The notes under the pieces are model-generated. The model searched no databases. It saw only the letters and a program-made list of their open reading frames with translations, and had not been told where the DNA came from. This document shows positions 21,139 to 43,859 of a stretch of DNA of 43,859 nt, in pieces. Position numbers and translations under genes: made by a program. Each line of letters begins with the position of its first letter. Position 1 is the first letter of the stretch. Where the stretch lies: positions 1 to 43,859 of IMG/VR virus record IMGVR_UViG_2908567220_000006. One strand, given 5' to 3'. Source of the DNA: a virus. Taxonomy: Duplodnaviria; Heunggongvirae; Uroviricota; Caudoviricetes.

Positions 21139-23609
21139 TGGCTATCAGTTGGATCCAGCCCAGCTTTGCCGGTGGTGAGATTGGACCGTCGTTGTACGGG
21201 CGTATTGACATGGCGAAGTACCAGGTGGCATTGCGCAAGTGCGATAACTTTATCGTGCGGCAGTATGGCGGCGTTGAGAATCGACCTGGTACGCGTTTTG
21301 TCGGTGCCGCCAAATACCCAAATCGGAAATGCCGCCTGATACCGTTCCAGTTCTCGACGGTTCAGACTTATGCTCTGGAGTTCGGACACCAGTACATGCG
21401 CGTTATCAAAGATGGTGCGTTGGTGCTGAACAGCAGCAATGTTATTTATGAAATTGCCACGCCATATACTGAAGCCGATCTGTTCCGAATTAAATTCACG
21501 CAAAGCGCAGACGTGCTTACGCTTGTTCATCCGGCATACCCGCCGAAAGAGTTGCGTCGCTATGCGCATGACAACTGGCAACTGGTTGATGTGGTAACGA
21601 AGAACGGGCCATTTGAAGATATCAATATTGACGAGTCAGTGACGGTTTATGCCAGCGCCAGCACCGGGACAATTACGTTAACGGCAAGCGCCTCTATTTT
21701 TGGCGCGGAGCAGGTAGGCAAATTGTTCTATCTGGAACAGCCTGCAGTGGATTCAGTGCCGGTATGGGAAACCAGTAAGAGTACGTCGATTGGCGATATT
21801 CGCCGTGCAGACAGTAACTACTATCGCGCCGTTACAGCAGGCAAAACAGGCACTTTGCGCCCTTCGCATACAGAAGGCACATCATGGGATGGCTGGGGCG
21901 GATCCGGTGATGATGATACTGGCATTGAGTGGGAATATCTGCACAGTGGTTTTGGCATTGCCCGTATCACTGCTGCAAATGGAACTACTGCAACTGCTGA
22001 GGTGATTTCCTATATCCCTTCGCAGGTCGTTGGCGAGGATAATGCCAGCTATAAATGGGCTAAATATGCCTGGAACAGTGTTAACGGTTATCCTGGCACG
22101 GTTGTTTATTATCAACAACGTCTTTACTTCGCCGCATCGACAGCGTTCCCTCAGACTATCTGGGCCAGCCGTACTGGGGATTATAAGGATTTTGGCAAAA
22201 GCAATCCTACGCAGGATGACGACAGAATTATCTACACCTATGCCGGGCGTCAGGTTAATGAGATCCGCCACCTGATTGATGTCGGTTCGCTGGTGGCACT
22301 GACTTCCGGAGGTGAGTACGTCATCACCGGCGACCAGAATAAAGTGTTAACCCCATCATCATTTGCATTCAGCTCTCAGGGATCAAATGGCTCAAGCAAC
22401 GTCCCACCAATTGCCGTGGCGAATATTGCTCTGTTCGTCCAGGAGAAAGGCAGTGTTGTCCGTGATCTGGCCTACTCATTCGATGTTGACGGCTATCAGG
22501 GGAACGACCTGACCATCCTTGCCAATCATCTTTTTCAGAAGCACAGCATTGTTGACTGGTGCTTCTCTATTGTCCCTTACTCCAGCGCCTTCTGCATTCG
22601 TGATGACGGTAAATTACTGGTGATGACCTATTTGCGTGATCAGCAGGTTTTTGCATGGGCACCACAGTCCAGTACCGGAAAATATGAAAGCACATGCAGT
22701 ATCAGCGAAGGAAATGAAGATGCGGTGTATTTCGTCGTTAACCGAACCGTTAACGGGCAAACAGTGAGATACATCGAGCGACTGTCCAGCCGTTTATTTA
22801 CCAGCGATGAAGATGCTTTCTTTGTTGATTCTGGCCTTAGCTATGATGGAAGAAACACGTCTGACAGAACGATGACCATCACTGGTGGTTCTGGCGAATG
22901 GGATTACCGCGCGGAATATACAATCAGTGTTTCTGGTGGTGCGTACTTCACCAGTAGTGATGTTGGTGCGCAACTACAGTTCCCTTATACCGGAGCTGAT
23001 CCTAATACTGGCTATGAAGTGTCAAAAGAATTACGTTGCGACATTATTTCTGTAACCAGCAATACCGCAGTAGTGGTTCGTGCTAACAGGAACGTCCCGC
23101 CATCCCTCAGGAATGTGGCCACCACGAACTGGCAGATGGCGCGCCGGACATTTGGCGGCTTGTCTCATCTTGAAGGCCAGACCGTAAACATCCTCTCTGA
23201 TGCGAACGTGGAACCACAAAAAGTGGTTTCCGGAGGTGCCGTCACGCTGGAATCACCGGGGGCTGTTGTGCACATCGGCCTGCCAATAACTGCTGAATTC
23301 GAAACACTGGATATCAACATTAACGGACAGGAAACGCTGCTGGACAAAAAACAGGTGATCCCGTCCGTTACTCTGGTTGTGAATGCCAGTCGCGGCATCT
23401 GGGCGACTACGCCCGGCGGTAAATGGTACGAATATCCACAGCGTGAATTCGAGTTCTACGATGATCCTGTTGATGATGCTACCGGAAAAGTAGAAGTGAA
23501 ACTGGACAGTAACTGGGGCAAAAACGGGCGTGTAAAAATCCGTCAGCTTGACCCGTTGCCGCTGTCTGTTCTTGCCGTTATTCCTCGCCTTACTGTTGGG
23601 GGATTCTGA
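21138..23609 (+). CDS. tail tubular protein B-like (T7 gp12 position)
   Basis: 823 aa; assignment by size and gene order. Confidence 0.5.
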   Translation: MAISWIQPSFAGGEIGPSLYGRIDMAKYQVALRKCDNFIVRQYGGVENRPGTRFVGAAKYPNRKCRLIPFQFSTVQTYALEFGHQYMRVIKDGALVLNSSNVIYEIATPYTEADLFRIKFTQSADVLTLVHPAYPPKELRRYAHDNWQLVDVVTKNGPFEDINIDESVTVYASASTGTITLTASASIFGAEQVGKLFYLEQPAVDSVPVWETSKSTSIGDIRRADSNYYRAVTAGKTGTLRPSHTEGTSWDGWGGSGDDDTGIEWEYLHSGFGIARITAANGTTATAEVISYIPSQVVGEDNASYKWAKYAWNSVNGYPGTVVYYQQRLYFAASTAFPQTIWASRTGDYKDFGKSNPTQDDDRIIYTYAGRQVNEIRHLIDVGSLVALTSGGEYVITGDQNKVLTPSSFAFSSQGSNGSSNVPPIAVANIALFVQEKGSVVRDLAYSFDVDGYQGNDLTILANHLFQKHSIVDWCFSIVPYSSAFCIRDDGKLLVMTYLRDQQVFAWAPQSSTGKYESTCSISEGNEDAVYFVVNRTVNGQTVRYIERLSSRLFTSDEDAFFVDSGLSYDGRNTSDRTMTITGGSGEWDYRAEYTISVSGGAYFTSSDVGAQLQFPYTGADPNTGYEVSKELRCDIISVTSNTAVVVRANRNVPPSLRNVATTNWQMARRTFGGLSHLEGQTVNILSDANVEPQKVVSGGAVTLESPGAVVHIGLPITAEFETLDININGQETLLDKKQVIPSVTLVVNASRGIWATTPGGKWYEYPQREFEFYDDPVDDATGKVEVKLDSNWGKNGRVKIRQLDPLPLSVLAVIPRLTVGGF

Positions 23610-39186: not shown

Positions 39187-39360
39187 CATGGCATTTTTCA
39201 TGGTACTGATTTCCGGTGACGGTATATAAAACGGTACTAAAAAAATGAAGTTTTGGAAAAATGTTATCACTCAATTGGTTATGGCTGCCGTAAATAATTG
39301 AGTGGGAATGATTTAACGTCTGGCAACAGCCTGCACGTAAAAGCAGTAAAGTACCTCTAA

Positions 39361-39618: not shown

Positions 39619-40809
39619 ATGTTGACTGACACCAGGCTGCGTCACCTTAAGCCGAAGGAGAAACTCTATAAAGTTAATGACCGTGATGGTCTGTATGTTG
39701 CGGTCACTCCGGCTGGAACTATTTCATTTCGTTATAACTATTCAATAAACGGAAGACAGGAGACTGTTACTTTTGGCCGCTATGGTGTTGGAGGGATCAC
39801 GCTTGCAGAAGCGCGTGAACGGCTCAATGAAGCCAAAAAAATGGTTGCCAGTGGAATATCGCCTGCGAGGGAAAAAGCCAGAGATAAAGCGCGTATTAAA
39901 GATGCGGAGACTTTTGGTGCGTGGACTGAGAAATGGTTACGCGGTTATCAAATGGCTGAATCGACGCGTGATATGCGGCGTTCGGTATATCAAAGGGAGT
40001 TGAAGTCAAAATTTGCCCAGCAGAAACTTAGTGAGATTACACATGAAGACTTACGCGCATTAACCGATAACATTGTCGAGAGAGGGGCACCAGCGACAGC
40101 TGTACACGCTAGAGAGATTGTATTGCAAGTCTATCGCTGGGCTATTGAGCGCGGTCAGAAGGTGGAGAATCCTGCTGATCTGGTACGGCCTGCAAGCATA
40201 GCGAAATTTGAGCCTCGAGACAGGGCATTGACGCCAGTTGAAATTGGTCTGATGTATCGGTACATGGAACGGGTAGGAACGACGCCATCAATCAGAGCAG
40301 CGGTTAAACTTTTGCTGTTAACGATGGTACGTAAAAGTGAGCTTACTAACGCAACCTGGAACGAGATCAATTTTAGTGAGGCATTATGGACGATACCAAA
40401 GGAAAGGATGAAACGACGTAATCCACATTTGGTTTTTCTTTCCAGACAGGCAATGGATATTATGATTGCTCTCAAAACCTTTGCCGGTAGCTCTGATTTT
40501 ATCCTTCCTTCGCGGTACGATTCCGATGCGCCAATGAGTAGCGCTACTTTAAACCGGGTTTTGACACTGACGTATCGCCTGGCTCAGAAAGAAGGGGAGT
40601 TGTTGCCTAAGTTTGGTCCCCATGACTTACGGCGTACAGCCAGCACCTTGCTACATGAGGCCGGGTACAATACTGACTGGATTGAGAAGAGCCTTGCCCA
40701 TGAACAAAAAGGGGTACGAGCTGTTTATAACAAGGCAGAATATCGTGAGCAGAGGGCTGAGATGCTACAAGATTGGGCGAATATGATTGATGAATGGACT
40801 AGTAAGTAG
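39619..40809 (+). CDS. int: tyrosine integrase (P4-type)
   Basis: 396 aa; P4-like N-terminal arm-binding region (LYKVNDRDGLYVAVTPAGTISFRYNYSINGRQ) and C-terminal catalytic region (HDLRRTAST...Y). Confidence 0.85.
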   Translation: MLTDTRLRHLKPKEKLYKVNDRDGLYVAVTPAGTISFRYNYSINGRQETVTFGRYGVGGITLAEARERLNEAKKMVASGISPAREKARDKARIKDAETFGAWTEKWLRGYQMAESTRDMRRSVYQRELKSKFAQQKLSEITHEDLRALTDNIVERGAPATAVHAREIVLQVYRWAIERGQKVENPADLVRPASIAKFEPRDRALTPVEIGLMYRYMERVGTTPSIRAAVKLLLLTMVRKSELTNATWNEINFSEALWTIPKERMKRRNPHLVFLSRQAMDIMIALKTFAGSSDFILPSRYDSDAPMSSATLNRVLTLTYRLAQKEGELLPKFGPHDLRRTASTLLHEAGYNTDWIEKSLAHEQKGVRAVYNKAEYREQRAEMLQDWANMIDEWTSK

Positions 40810-40944
40810 TTAATAATCAGTAAGTTAAGTGGTTGTGCTTCTTTTTTCTACGGTAGGAGAGCAATTTTAGCCGCTAAAATTTACTGAATCTTTACTGGTT
40901 TTATCTGGATTGCATAAAAAGGAAAAATAAAAGTGGATTTGCCC

Positions 40945-41850
40945 CTATATTTCCAGACATCTGTTATCACTTAACCCATTACAAGCCCGCTGCCGCAGAT
41001 ATTCCCGTGGCGAGCGATAACCCAGCGCACTATGCGGATGCCATTCGTTATAATGCTCGAACGCCTCTGCAAGGTTCTTTGCTGCCGTTAACCCGTCTGG
41101 TTTGGGCATGATACTGATGTAGTCACGCTTTATCGTTTTCACGAAGCTCTCTGCTATTCCGTTACTCTCCGGACTCCGCACCGCCGTGTTCTTCGGTTCA
41201 AGTCCCAACATCCGGGCGAACTGGCGTGTTTCATTAGCCCGGTAGCATGAACCATTATCCGTCAGCCACTCCACTGGAGACGACGGAAGATCGTTGCCGA
41301 AGCGGCGTTCCACCGCTCCCAGCATGACGTCCTGTACTGTTTCACTGTTGAAGCCGCCGGTAGTGACCGCCCAGTGCAGTGCCTCACGATCACAGCAGTC
41401 CAGCGCGAACGTGACACGCAGTCTCTCTCCGTTATCACAGCAGAACTCGAACCCGTCAGAGCACCATCGCTGATTGCTTTCTTTCACGGCCACTCTGCCT
41501 GTATGTGCCCGTTTCGATGGCGGTACAGCAGGTTTTCGCTCAAGCAACAGCGCATTCTGGCGCATGATCCGGTAAACACGTTTGGCATTGATCGCAGGCA
41601 TACCATCAAGTTCTGCCTGTCTGCGAAGCAGCGCCCATACCCGACGATAACCATACGTGGGCAGCTCTCCGATAACATGGTGTATACGGAGAAGCACATC
41701 CGTATCATCAGTGTGACGACTGCGGCGGCCATCCATCCAGTCATCGGTTCGTCTGAGAATGACGTGCAACTGCGCACGCGACACCCGGAGACAACGGCTG
41801 ACTAAGCTTACTCCCCATCCCCGGGCAATAAGGGCGCGTGCGCTATCCAC
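40945..41850 (-). CDS. insD: IS2 transposase OrfB (InsD)
   Basis: 301 aa, recognised as IS2 OrfB from memory; expressed by frameshift from OrfA. Confidence 0.85.
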
Positions 41851-42218
41851 TTTTTTGCCCGTCCATATTCAACGGCTTCTTTGAGGAGTTCATTTTCCAT
41901 CGTTTTCTTGCCGAGCAGGCGCTGGAGTTCTTTAATCTGCTTCATGGCGGCAGCAAGTTCAGAGGCAGGAACAACCTGTTCTCCGGCGGCGACAGCAGTA
42001 AGACTTCCTTCCTGGTATTGCTTACGCCAGAGAAATAACTGGCTGGCTGCTACACCATGTTGCCGGGCAACGAGGGAGACCGTCATCCCCGGTTCAAAGC
42101 TCTGCTGAACAATTGCGATCTTTTCCTGTGTGGTACGCCGTCTGCGTTTCTCCGGCCCTAAGACATCAATCATCTGTTCTCCAATGACTAGTCTAAAAAC
42201 TAGTATTAAGACTATCAC
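41808..42218 (-). CDS. insC: IS2 transposase OrfA (InsC)
   Basis: HTH-containing OrfA; overlaps OrfB in a different frame. Confidence 0.85.
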
Positions 42219-42295
42219 TTAAATAAGTGATATTGGTTGTCTGGAGATTCAGGGGGCCAGTCTAAAAAGTGCCTGAGTTGTCTGTAATTATACAA

Positions 42296-42898
42296 TGGAT
42301 GAATCAATACCCTAAGACCGGCTGGCTATTGCTGTGTATCTATATTGCACTCGGTGTAGTTCGTCACAGAGTAATTAATGCTGAATCTGGAAGTGTATTT
42401 CGTGGACTACTCAATCTTAGGAAGCGCCGGCTAGAGCAAATGCTGACACAGCCATATTCGAATAAAAATGCGGTCCGTCTGGCAAAGCGTGAGCTTCGTC
42501 AGCGCAGCCTTTATCGGCTCACAGGCTTGTATAATTATCGGCTGCAGGATTTGGCTGTAATAATGTGTGATCGTTATGGGTTGCGGGCTGGTTATCTCAA
42601 GCCGTGGCGTAACTGGCTCGAAGAACGGGATGGACGGATTGTGTTCAACAGGAAATGGCATTGTTTTCGCTGGCGTCTTTTTCTGGTAGGTCAGATTGTA
42701 AACACAGTTCTACTAATATTATTCATTATGTATATAGTTTCTCATTCTTCGGCCGAAATGATCGCACCGCTTATGTTACTCTTCATGCTTGTATGGTGGT
42801 TTCCTTGGCTAATGATCACCTCGGTACCTACCCCTAGGTGGACTCGCGAAATGGAAGTCTATCTTGAGAAATTTAACGCTGAACAGACCATGGTTTAA
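42296..42898 (+). CDS. hypothetical membrane protein (N-terminal TM, basic soluble domain, two C-terminal TM helices)
   Basis: Start at ATG 42296 (MDESIP) rather than the ORF-track start at 42269, which lies in the IS2 target duplication; IS2 sits 27 bp upstream. Confidence 0.5.
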   Translation, partial: WMNQYPKTGWLLLCIYIALGVVRHRVINAESGSVFRGLLNLRKRRLEQMLTQPYSNKNAVRLAKRELRQRSLYRLTGLYNYRLQDLAVIMCDRYGLRAGYLKPWRNWLEERDGRIVFNRKWHCFRWRLFLVGQIVNTVLLILFIMYIVSHSSAEMIAPLMLLFMLVWWFPWLMITSVPTPRWTREMEVYLEKFNAEQTMV

Positions 42899-42945
42899 AC
42901 TGTTCTTTGTTACCATGCATTCAGAGTGAAGGTAATGACTCCAAC

Positions 42946-43449
42946 TTATTGATAGTGTTTTATGTTCAGATAATGCCCGATGACTTTGTCATGCAGCTCC
43001 ACCGATTTTGAAAACGACAGCGACTTCCGTCCCAGCCGTGCCAGGTGCTGCCTCAGATTCAGGTTATGCCGCTCAATTCGCTGCGTATATCGCTTGCTGA
43101 TTACGTGCAGCTTTCCCTTCAGGCGGGATTCATACAGCGGCCAGCCATCCGTCATCCATATCACCACGTCAAAGGGTGACAGCAGGCTCATAAGACGCCC
43201 CAGCGTCGCCATAGTGCGTTCACCGAATACGTGCGCAACAACCGTCTTCCGGAGACTGTCATACGCGTAAAACAGCCAGCGCTGGCGCGATTTAGCCCCG
43301 ACATAGCCCCACTGTTCGTCCATTTCCGCGCAGACGATGACGTCACTGCCCGGCTGTATGCGCGAGGTTACCGACTGCGGCCTGAGTTTTTTAAGTGACG
43401 TAAAATCGTGTTGAGGCCAACGCCCATAATGCGGGCTGTTGCCCGGCAT
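42946..43449 (-). CDS. insB: IS1 transposase InsB
   Basis: 167 aa, recognised as IS1 InsB. Confidence 0.85.
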
Positions 43450-43643
43450 CCAACGCCATTCATGGCCATATCAATGATTTTCTGGTGCGTACCGGGTTGA
43501 GAAGCGGTGTAAGTGAACTGCAGTTGCCATGTTTTACGGCAGTGAGAGCAGAGATAGCGCTGATGTCCGGCGGTGCTTTTGCCGTTACGCACCACCCCGT
43601 CAGTAGCTGAACAGGAGGGACAGCTGATAGAAACAGAAGCCAC
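43368..43643 (-). CDS. insA: IS1 InsA
   Basis: 91 aa, [43 protein letters not shown] recognised as IS1 InsA. Confidence 0.85.
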
Positions 43644-43698
43644 TGGAGCACCTCAAAAACACCATCATACACTAAATCAGTAAGTTGGCAGCATCACC

Positions 43699-43859
43699 GG
43701 AAGAATGGAAATAATATTAACGGTTTTAGTTTCTTGTTTGGTATTCAGTTGATCGGTTTGATAAACATCGGCGGCATGATCGTCAGCATTTGACTGGCAT
43801 CCTGCCAGAGTGAATGACGCTAACATTGCCACAGGCAGAAGACATTTTTTAAATTTCAT
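43699..43859 (-). pseudogene. lipoprotein gene truncated at its 3' end by IS1
   Basis: Starts at the window edge with MKFKKCLLPVAMLASFTLAGCQ (signal peptide and lipobox); the reading frame runs into the IS1 terminus. Confidence 0.45.

Follow-up and report, generated by a model that had tools for sequence, protein, structure and literature searches.

A single IS1 element without target duplication as the probable scar of a deletion joining a guaA island remnant to truncated yfgH in Escherichia coli

The window analyzed here, a stretch of 43,859 nt, holds a single IS1 element at positions 42931-43698, which very probably marks where an IS1-mediated deletion took place in an E. coli chromosome. 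To the left of the element lies the beginning of an integrative island located at the 3' end of guaA; to its right lies the 5' part of the core gene yfgH. The phenomenon is already known and represents ordinary, textbook IS1 biology.

The element itself is a complete, IS1A-like IS1 on the minus strand with the canonical length of 768 bp and both ends present. It starts with GGTAATGACTCC (IRR), ends with GGCAGCATCACC (the reverse complement of IRL) and displays the imperfect terminal inverted repeats usual for IS1 (GGTGATGCTGCCAACTTA / GGTAATGACTCCAACTTA). The open reading frames of insA (43368-43643, minus strand; 91 aa) and insB' (42946-43449, minus strand; 167 aa) are both intact, as is the A6C-type frameshift motif for the InsAB' transposase (TTAAAAAAC, IS1 position 305), and the 167-aa product has the Pfam domain DDE_Tnp_IS1 on record. 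Three mismatches separate this IS1 from two compared copies annotated as IS1A. Its IRR end faces the island and its IRL end faces yfgH.

A simple IS1 insertion is expected to leave a 9-bp target duplication, which is absent here; the identity of the element as IS1 is unaffected by this. The left 9-bp flank is CAGAGTGAA (42922-42930), followed in uninterrupted islands by TTGTCAGAGTTTTGG..., while the right 9-bp flank, GGAAGAATG (43699-43707), corresponds to nt 161-153 of yfgH counted from the ATG. An earlier sequence-only reading of this DNA had concluded from the differing flanks that the insertion was not a simple one, and had named an 8-9-bp duplication emerging after correction of the IS1 boundaries as the finding that would overturn this conclusion. 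In our analysis the conclusion stood: the longest string common to both flanks is 4 bp, and a search for a hidden duplication of 7-11 bp, with the IS1 ends shifted by up to 5 bp and one mismatch permitted, yielded none. Moreover, the match to uninterrupted relatives ends exactly at the IS1 boundaries on both sides (left limit 42930).

The neighboring IS2 (1331 bp; 40934-42264, minus strand) served as an internal control. This element, which carries its transposase ORFs, is a simple insertion with a clean 5-bp duplication (AAAAG at 40929-40933 and 42265-42269); the empty site in E. coli M8 reads ...ATAAAAGTGCC..., and the blast breakpoints agree. The missing duplication is therefore specific to IS1. 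An ordinary IS1 insertion with wrongly drawn boundaries, in which a real 8-9-bp duplication had been overlooked, is practically excluded: the canonical length, the inverted repeats and the outcome of the shift search all speak against it, and the loci represented by the two flanks are non-adjacent in every uninterrupted genome, so that this explanation is already refuted.

On the right, IS1 is flanked by the first 161 nt of yfgH (43699-43859). This stretch is 100% identical to yfgH in many genomes, and at least 80% of it is covered in 5,408 of the 5,426 complete E. coli genomes. The reading frame of the truncated gene (MKFKKCLLPVAMLASFTLAGC...; 43677-43859, minus strand) enters IS1 for 22 bases and encodes a stub of 60 aa, which consists of 53 native codons, the codon at the junction, which continues to specify Pro, and VMLPTY-stop derived from the IS1 end (...ILPVMLPTY-stop). 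Intact YfgH, by comparison, has 171 aa from this ATG (annotated elsewhere as a 172-aa glycine-zipper 2TM lipoprotein), and its gene is located between yfgG and yfgI. The sequence-only reading had noticed a minus-strand lipoprotein ORF that runs into the IS1 end and has lost its native C-terminus, and had proposed looking for the intact gene in related genomes. Both points were borne out, as the gene is yfgH, which is intact in complete E. coli genomes and whose last 355 nt (about two thirds) are absent from the joint.

The stub retains the signal peptide and the LAGC lipobox, while the glycine-zipper region (residues ~70 onward) is deleted. Judged by its sequence, the yfgH of the window is thus a remnant and not a functional member of YfgH, a glycine-zipper lipoprotein of the outer membrane. 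YfgH was recently reported to stabilize the outer membrane under envelope stress, and deletion of yfgH was described in a 2025 preprint to cause higher sensitivity to detergents and chelators and greater outer-membrane permeability. In the source strain, both yfgH and yfgI would be null.

On the left, IS1 lies 32 bp downstream of an intact hypothetical ORF of 209 aa (42269-42898, plus strand). This ORF is the last island gene that has been kept; it is 99.85% identical to its counterpart in the M8 island and has no Pfam match on record. A tyrosine integrase of 396 aa (39619-40809, plus strand; Arm-DNA-bind_3, Phage_int_M and Phage_integrase on record in Pfam) precedes it. With these two genes begins an integrative island that 35 complete genomes carry at the guaA 3' end; in all of them the island DNA at the left flank continues uninterrupted. 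In M8, the island goes on with genes for a LuxR-family regulator, a RepA helicase, TrbJ, TrbL, HigA, an ABC-three-component defence system and a Fic/DOC protein, and it is bounded on both sides by the attachment core ATTGAGTGGGAATGATTT, the second copy of which lies just before yfgI. As a side observation (window 40929-42271), the IS2 insertion abuts the start codon of the 209-aa ORF, a GTG at 42269, and displaces the native upstream region. Expression of this ORF may depend on read-out from IS2 or on an internal ATG.

The two flanks of IS1 are separated in genomes with an uninterrupted island. An interval of 25,181 bp lies between the two breakpoints in E. coli M8. This figure holds for M8, in which the integrase region matches at only 97.3% identity and IS copies unseen in the window lineage are present. 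The interval comprises the rest of the island with attR, yfgI and 355 nt of yfgH. In an island-free genome, ~999 bp of backbone lie between the att core and the yfgH breakpoint. Despite the distance, native order and orientation are kept on both sides of the joint, with guaA on the left and yfgH', yfgG, pdeF and ppx on the right. The event was therefore a deletion and not an inversion, and the joint shows what is expected of an adjacent deletion, namely flanks that are non-adjacent elsewhere and lie there in the same order and orientation. This substantiates the proposal of the sequence-only reading that the DNA to the right became attached through a deletion or recombination mediated by IS1, and the alignment of the flanks to related genomes, which it had suggested as a means of finding the missing segment, identified that segment as the rest of the island with attR, yfgI and the 3' part of yfgH. 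The intervening DNA was found neither elsewhere in the 43.9-kb window nor in 20-kb loci around the joint, and it appears to have been lost from the cell rather than moved elsewhere.

Since IS1 is a multicopy repeat at which short-read contigs break, two copies could in principle have been collapsed into one during assembly, falsely joining the island to yfgH. The recurrence of the joint makes such a mis-assembly very improbable. Over its final 10,183 bp, the window matches CP024978.1 at 100% identity. This record belongs to the porcine enterotoxigenic E. coli (ETEC) strain CV839-15, whose assembly combined an 8-10-kb PacBio library with Illumina reads (PMC5824013); fragments of that size far exceed a 768-bp IS. 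The same arrangement of IS2, 209-aa ORF, IS1 and yfgH' is present with 99.98% identity on a 941,808-bp contig of a second, independent long assembly (UASH01000006.1), in which guaA directly precedes the integrase and no prophage is found. The question of mis-assembly across IS copies, which the sequence-only reading had raised, is thereby largely answered. Furthermore, 35 blocks of public assemblies list the exact 60-aa yfgH stub, and the short-read contigs that carry it stop inside IS1, as expected for a repeat. The exact 209-aa ORF occurs on contigs of <2 kb in 51 blocks of the collection, a size that would fit an ORF boxed between IS2 and IS1 in many isolates. Independently of the joint, we observed that pdeF (yfgF) is split into ORFs of 115 aa and 622 aa in CV839-15 and GCA_022976335.1 (L005 6902-9144), and that it is an intact gene of 747 aa in the UASH01 relative (L006 6901-9144).

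We propose the following history for the deletion. The ancestral order would have been guaA, the island (integrase, 209-aa ORF and further genes), the island attR, yfgI and yfgH. The first step would have been an IS1 insertion in yfgH, with GGAAGAATG as the target. In the second, the IRR end of this IS1 would have attacked a site 32 bp past the 209-aa ORF on the same molecule, in an intramolecular (abortive) transposition, and the DNA between the two points would have been lost, presumably as a circle with one IS1 copy. The one IS1 left in the chromosome would keep its old flank, the 5' part of yfgH, at IRL and gain a new flank at IRR. One old and one new flank would thus account for the mismatch between the two 9-bp sequences. 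The same model has been used to explain large IS1-associated deletions (PMC10569738).

The final structure is identical whichever IS1 end was resident first, and also after recombination between two direct copies, so the sequence alone is not decisive, and the order of events was approached through relatives. Within the deletion scenario, a first hit in yfgH is somewhat favored. The close relative UIIN01 (GCA_900499295.1), which differs by 2-3 mismatches over 8.7-10.3 kb, shows the identical yfgH'-IS1(IRL) junction, while its island runs uninterrupted across the left breakpoint of the window; its contigs stop inside IS1. The presence of the yfgH junction together with an uninterrupted left site argues for yfgH as the earlier target. 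This argument is weakened by the fact that the same yfgH site was struck independently elsewhere, and the shared junction could therefore reflect recurrence. As both junctions of UIIN01 end in IRL, we also considered that it might be an inversion product of the same intramolecular reaction; its two IS1 ends differ by one SNP, however, and a second, independent IS1 copy in UIIN01 is at least as likely.

That GGAAGAATG is a real IS1 target is evident from contig CAUIQN010000014.1, which carries the reciprocal junction: the IRR end of IS1 is followed by CATTCTTCC, yfgH from nt 162 onward, yfgI and guaA, demonstrating a 9-bp duplication of this target. The contig was located through the protein predicted for the other junction of a simple insertion at GGAAGAATG (MESLPILPAKVAV...), of which the exact sequence is present in the public collection. 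The genome behind CAUIQN010000014.1 is ~1% diverged and lacks the island, and its insertion is therefore an independent event rather than an ancestor of the one in the window. Among the 5,426 complete E. coli genomes, the search for the exact right junction returned two near-misses only (E70 and A30). Both were rejected as instances of the same junction, as they are separate simple insertions 3-4 bp away.

With the opposite order, IS1 would have occupied the island site CAGAGTGAA before transposing intramolecularly, by its IRL end, into yfgH. The structure is equally compatible with this order, and the yfgH site, being a preferred IS1 target, would be no less open to an intramolecular attack than to ordinary insertion. 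UIIN01, in which the yfgH junction coexists with an uninterrupted left site, points the other way, and the left junction is unseen outside this deletion in the 5,426 complete E. coli genomes. We therefore consider a first insertion into the island improbable.

Homologous recombination between two direct IS1 copies, one in yfgH (GGAAGAATG) and one 32 bp past the island ORF (CAGAGTGAA), would excise everything between them and leave a hybrid IS1 with half of each duplication, which is exactly the structure observed. The lineage is rich in IS1 at this locus, with copies in relatives at +169 and +415 bp past the ORF and around yfgG, and the yfgH site is a proven target of simple insertion. However, three events would be needed instead of two, and no IS1 is present at the left site in any of the 5,426 complete E. 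coli genomes or in the close relatives examined. The island-side copies of the relatives are, moreover, oppositely oriented and would give rise to an inversion, not a deletion. A mosaic IS1, as a sign of recombination between two isoforms, was also sought, and only 1-3 scattered differences to the closest copies were detected; given the few variant sites, the absence of a mosaic pattern counts weakly against recombination and is uninformative either way. Overall, recombination appears to be an unlikely source of the joint, which was presumably made by transposition.

Taken together, the relatives suggest that IS1 entered yfgH first, followed, in either order, by the IS2 insertion and the deletion. 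As the last step, they suggest either integration of the prophage in the CV839-15 branch or its loss in the UASH01 branch.

The locus shows further traces of IS1. In yfgH, we counted at least four apparently independent IS1 strikes within ~16 bp (window 43699-43711; L003 5261-6087, L004 5261-6040 and L026 1-140), in a search centered on this site, which is therefore at most a candidate hotspot within the gene. A30 carries the duplication GCGGGAAGA and E70 the duplication GAATGGAAA; GGAAGAATG was hit, with IS1 in the same orientation, both in CAUIQN01 (both junctions) and in the window lineage (one junction). That yfgH nt ~149-164 form a strong IS1 hotspot, and that loss of YfgH is perhaps recurrently selected in some E. 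coli lineages (the porcine ETEC clone studied here being an example) and does not reflect neutral decay, is a speculative idea to which we attach little probability. On the island side, close relatives with at least 99.95% identical flanks carry other IS1 junctions at +169 and +415 bp past the 209-aa ORF (L023 10631-11002 and L018 10631-16500). IRL points inward in both, and on one scaffold a segment of yfgG lies inverted between IS1 ends. In the clonal group of the source strain, IS1 has been very active at this locus.

Adjacent deletions by IS1 were reportedly described by Reif and Saedler in 1975 for the gal region of E. coli K-12, which are regarded as the classic examples. Large IS1-related deletions around nfsB provide a recent one (PMC10569738). 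The joint in the window resembles such adjacent deletions in having one intact IS1, of whose two ends one retains the original flank and the other adjoins distant sequence, in lacking a flanking duplication and in the loss of kilobases of adjacent DNA. Nothing essential differs; here, the distal part of an island and two core genes are affected, and the direction of the event is inferred from relatives only. The case is of little general importance, and its interest lies in being a clean and well-documented example of IS1 eroding a genomic island together with adjacent core genes.

The simple insertions in yfgH of E70, A30 and CAUIQN010000014.1 involve the same element and the same few nucleotides of the gene, and CAUIQN01 shares with the window the very same 9-mer and orientation. 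In contrast to the window, which has the IRL-side junction only, these three retain the two parts of yfgH together with the 9-bp duplication and yfgI. Among IS-eroded guaA islands, those of 2018-10-2CC, NCTC9008 and PK8566 are alike in having the integrase and the 209-aa ORF after guaA and IS1 in place of parts of the island, but their breakpoints differ: 2018-10-2CC retains yfgI and yfgH, IS1 joins the island to rclA in NCTC9008, and IS1X2 cuts into the 209-aa ORF in PK8566. In NCTC9008 (L016 6859-9870), we additionally observed that IS1 cuts the island after the LuxR gene and that rclA, to which it is joined, is itself bracketed by two IS1 copies.

The remainder of the window (1-39296) is a prophage of a phiV10/epsilon15-like podovirus (Uetakevirus), with structural genes 96-98% identical to those of EC.W1-9, TL-2011b and phiV10. 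It ends at the 18-bp att core ATTGAGTGGGAATGATTT (39297-39314, plus strand), which consists of the last 15 nt of guaA plus TTT and at which the match to the guaA 3' end of prophage-free relatives begins. This core acts as attR for the prophage on its left and as attL for the island remnant on its right. The right end of the prophage is marked by ATTGAGTGGGAATGATT(T) at 39297-39314, matching the published attP/attB core attgagtgggaatgatt of the Uetakevirus vB_EcoP_ZX5 at the guaA 3' end (PMC9782041). The likeness to Uetakevirus integration at guaA, with the same att core at 39297-39313, concerns the neighboring prophage and not the IS1 joint, and differs in that the prophage here stands in tandem with an island remnant on the same site.

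The 396-aa integrase might be mistaken for that of the prophage. We rejected this assignment, as the gene immediately follows guaA in M8, UASH01 and further prophage-free genomes, and as the related prophage of APEC O1 has its own integrase of 418 aa at the other end. There, the 418-aa integrase adjoins guaA at the end that corresponds to just left of the window, and by analogy the integrase of the window prophage probably lies just left of the window start. The locus is thus composed of two elements in tandem on one guaA attachment site, with an intact prophage junction. The suggestion in the sequence-only reading that the right-hand prophage or host junction had been deleted holds in part: the prophage attR is kept at 39297-39314, while the island attR, yfgI and the 3' part of yfgH are missing. 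With an integrase but no attR, the island remnant would no longer be able to excise, whereas the right attachment site of the prophage is still usable. Prophage-boundary calls should accordingly stop at ~39314 and exclude the integrase, IS2, IS1 and yfgH'. As a minor observation, a 12-mer from the start of the att core (ATTGAGTGGGAA) recurs at 21924-21935 inside the structural region of the prophage, which is probably due to chance (~0.005 such matches expected in the window).
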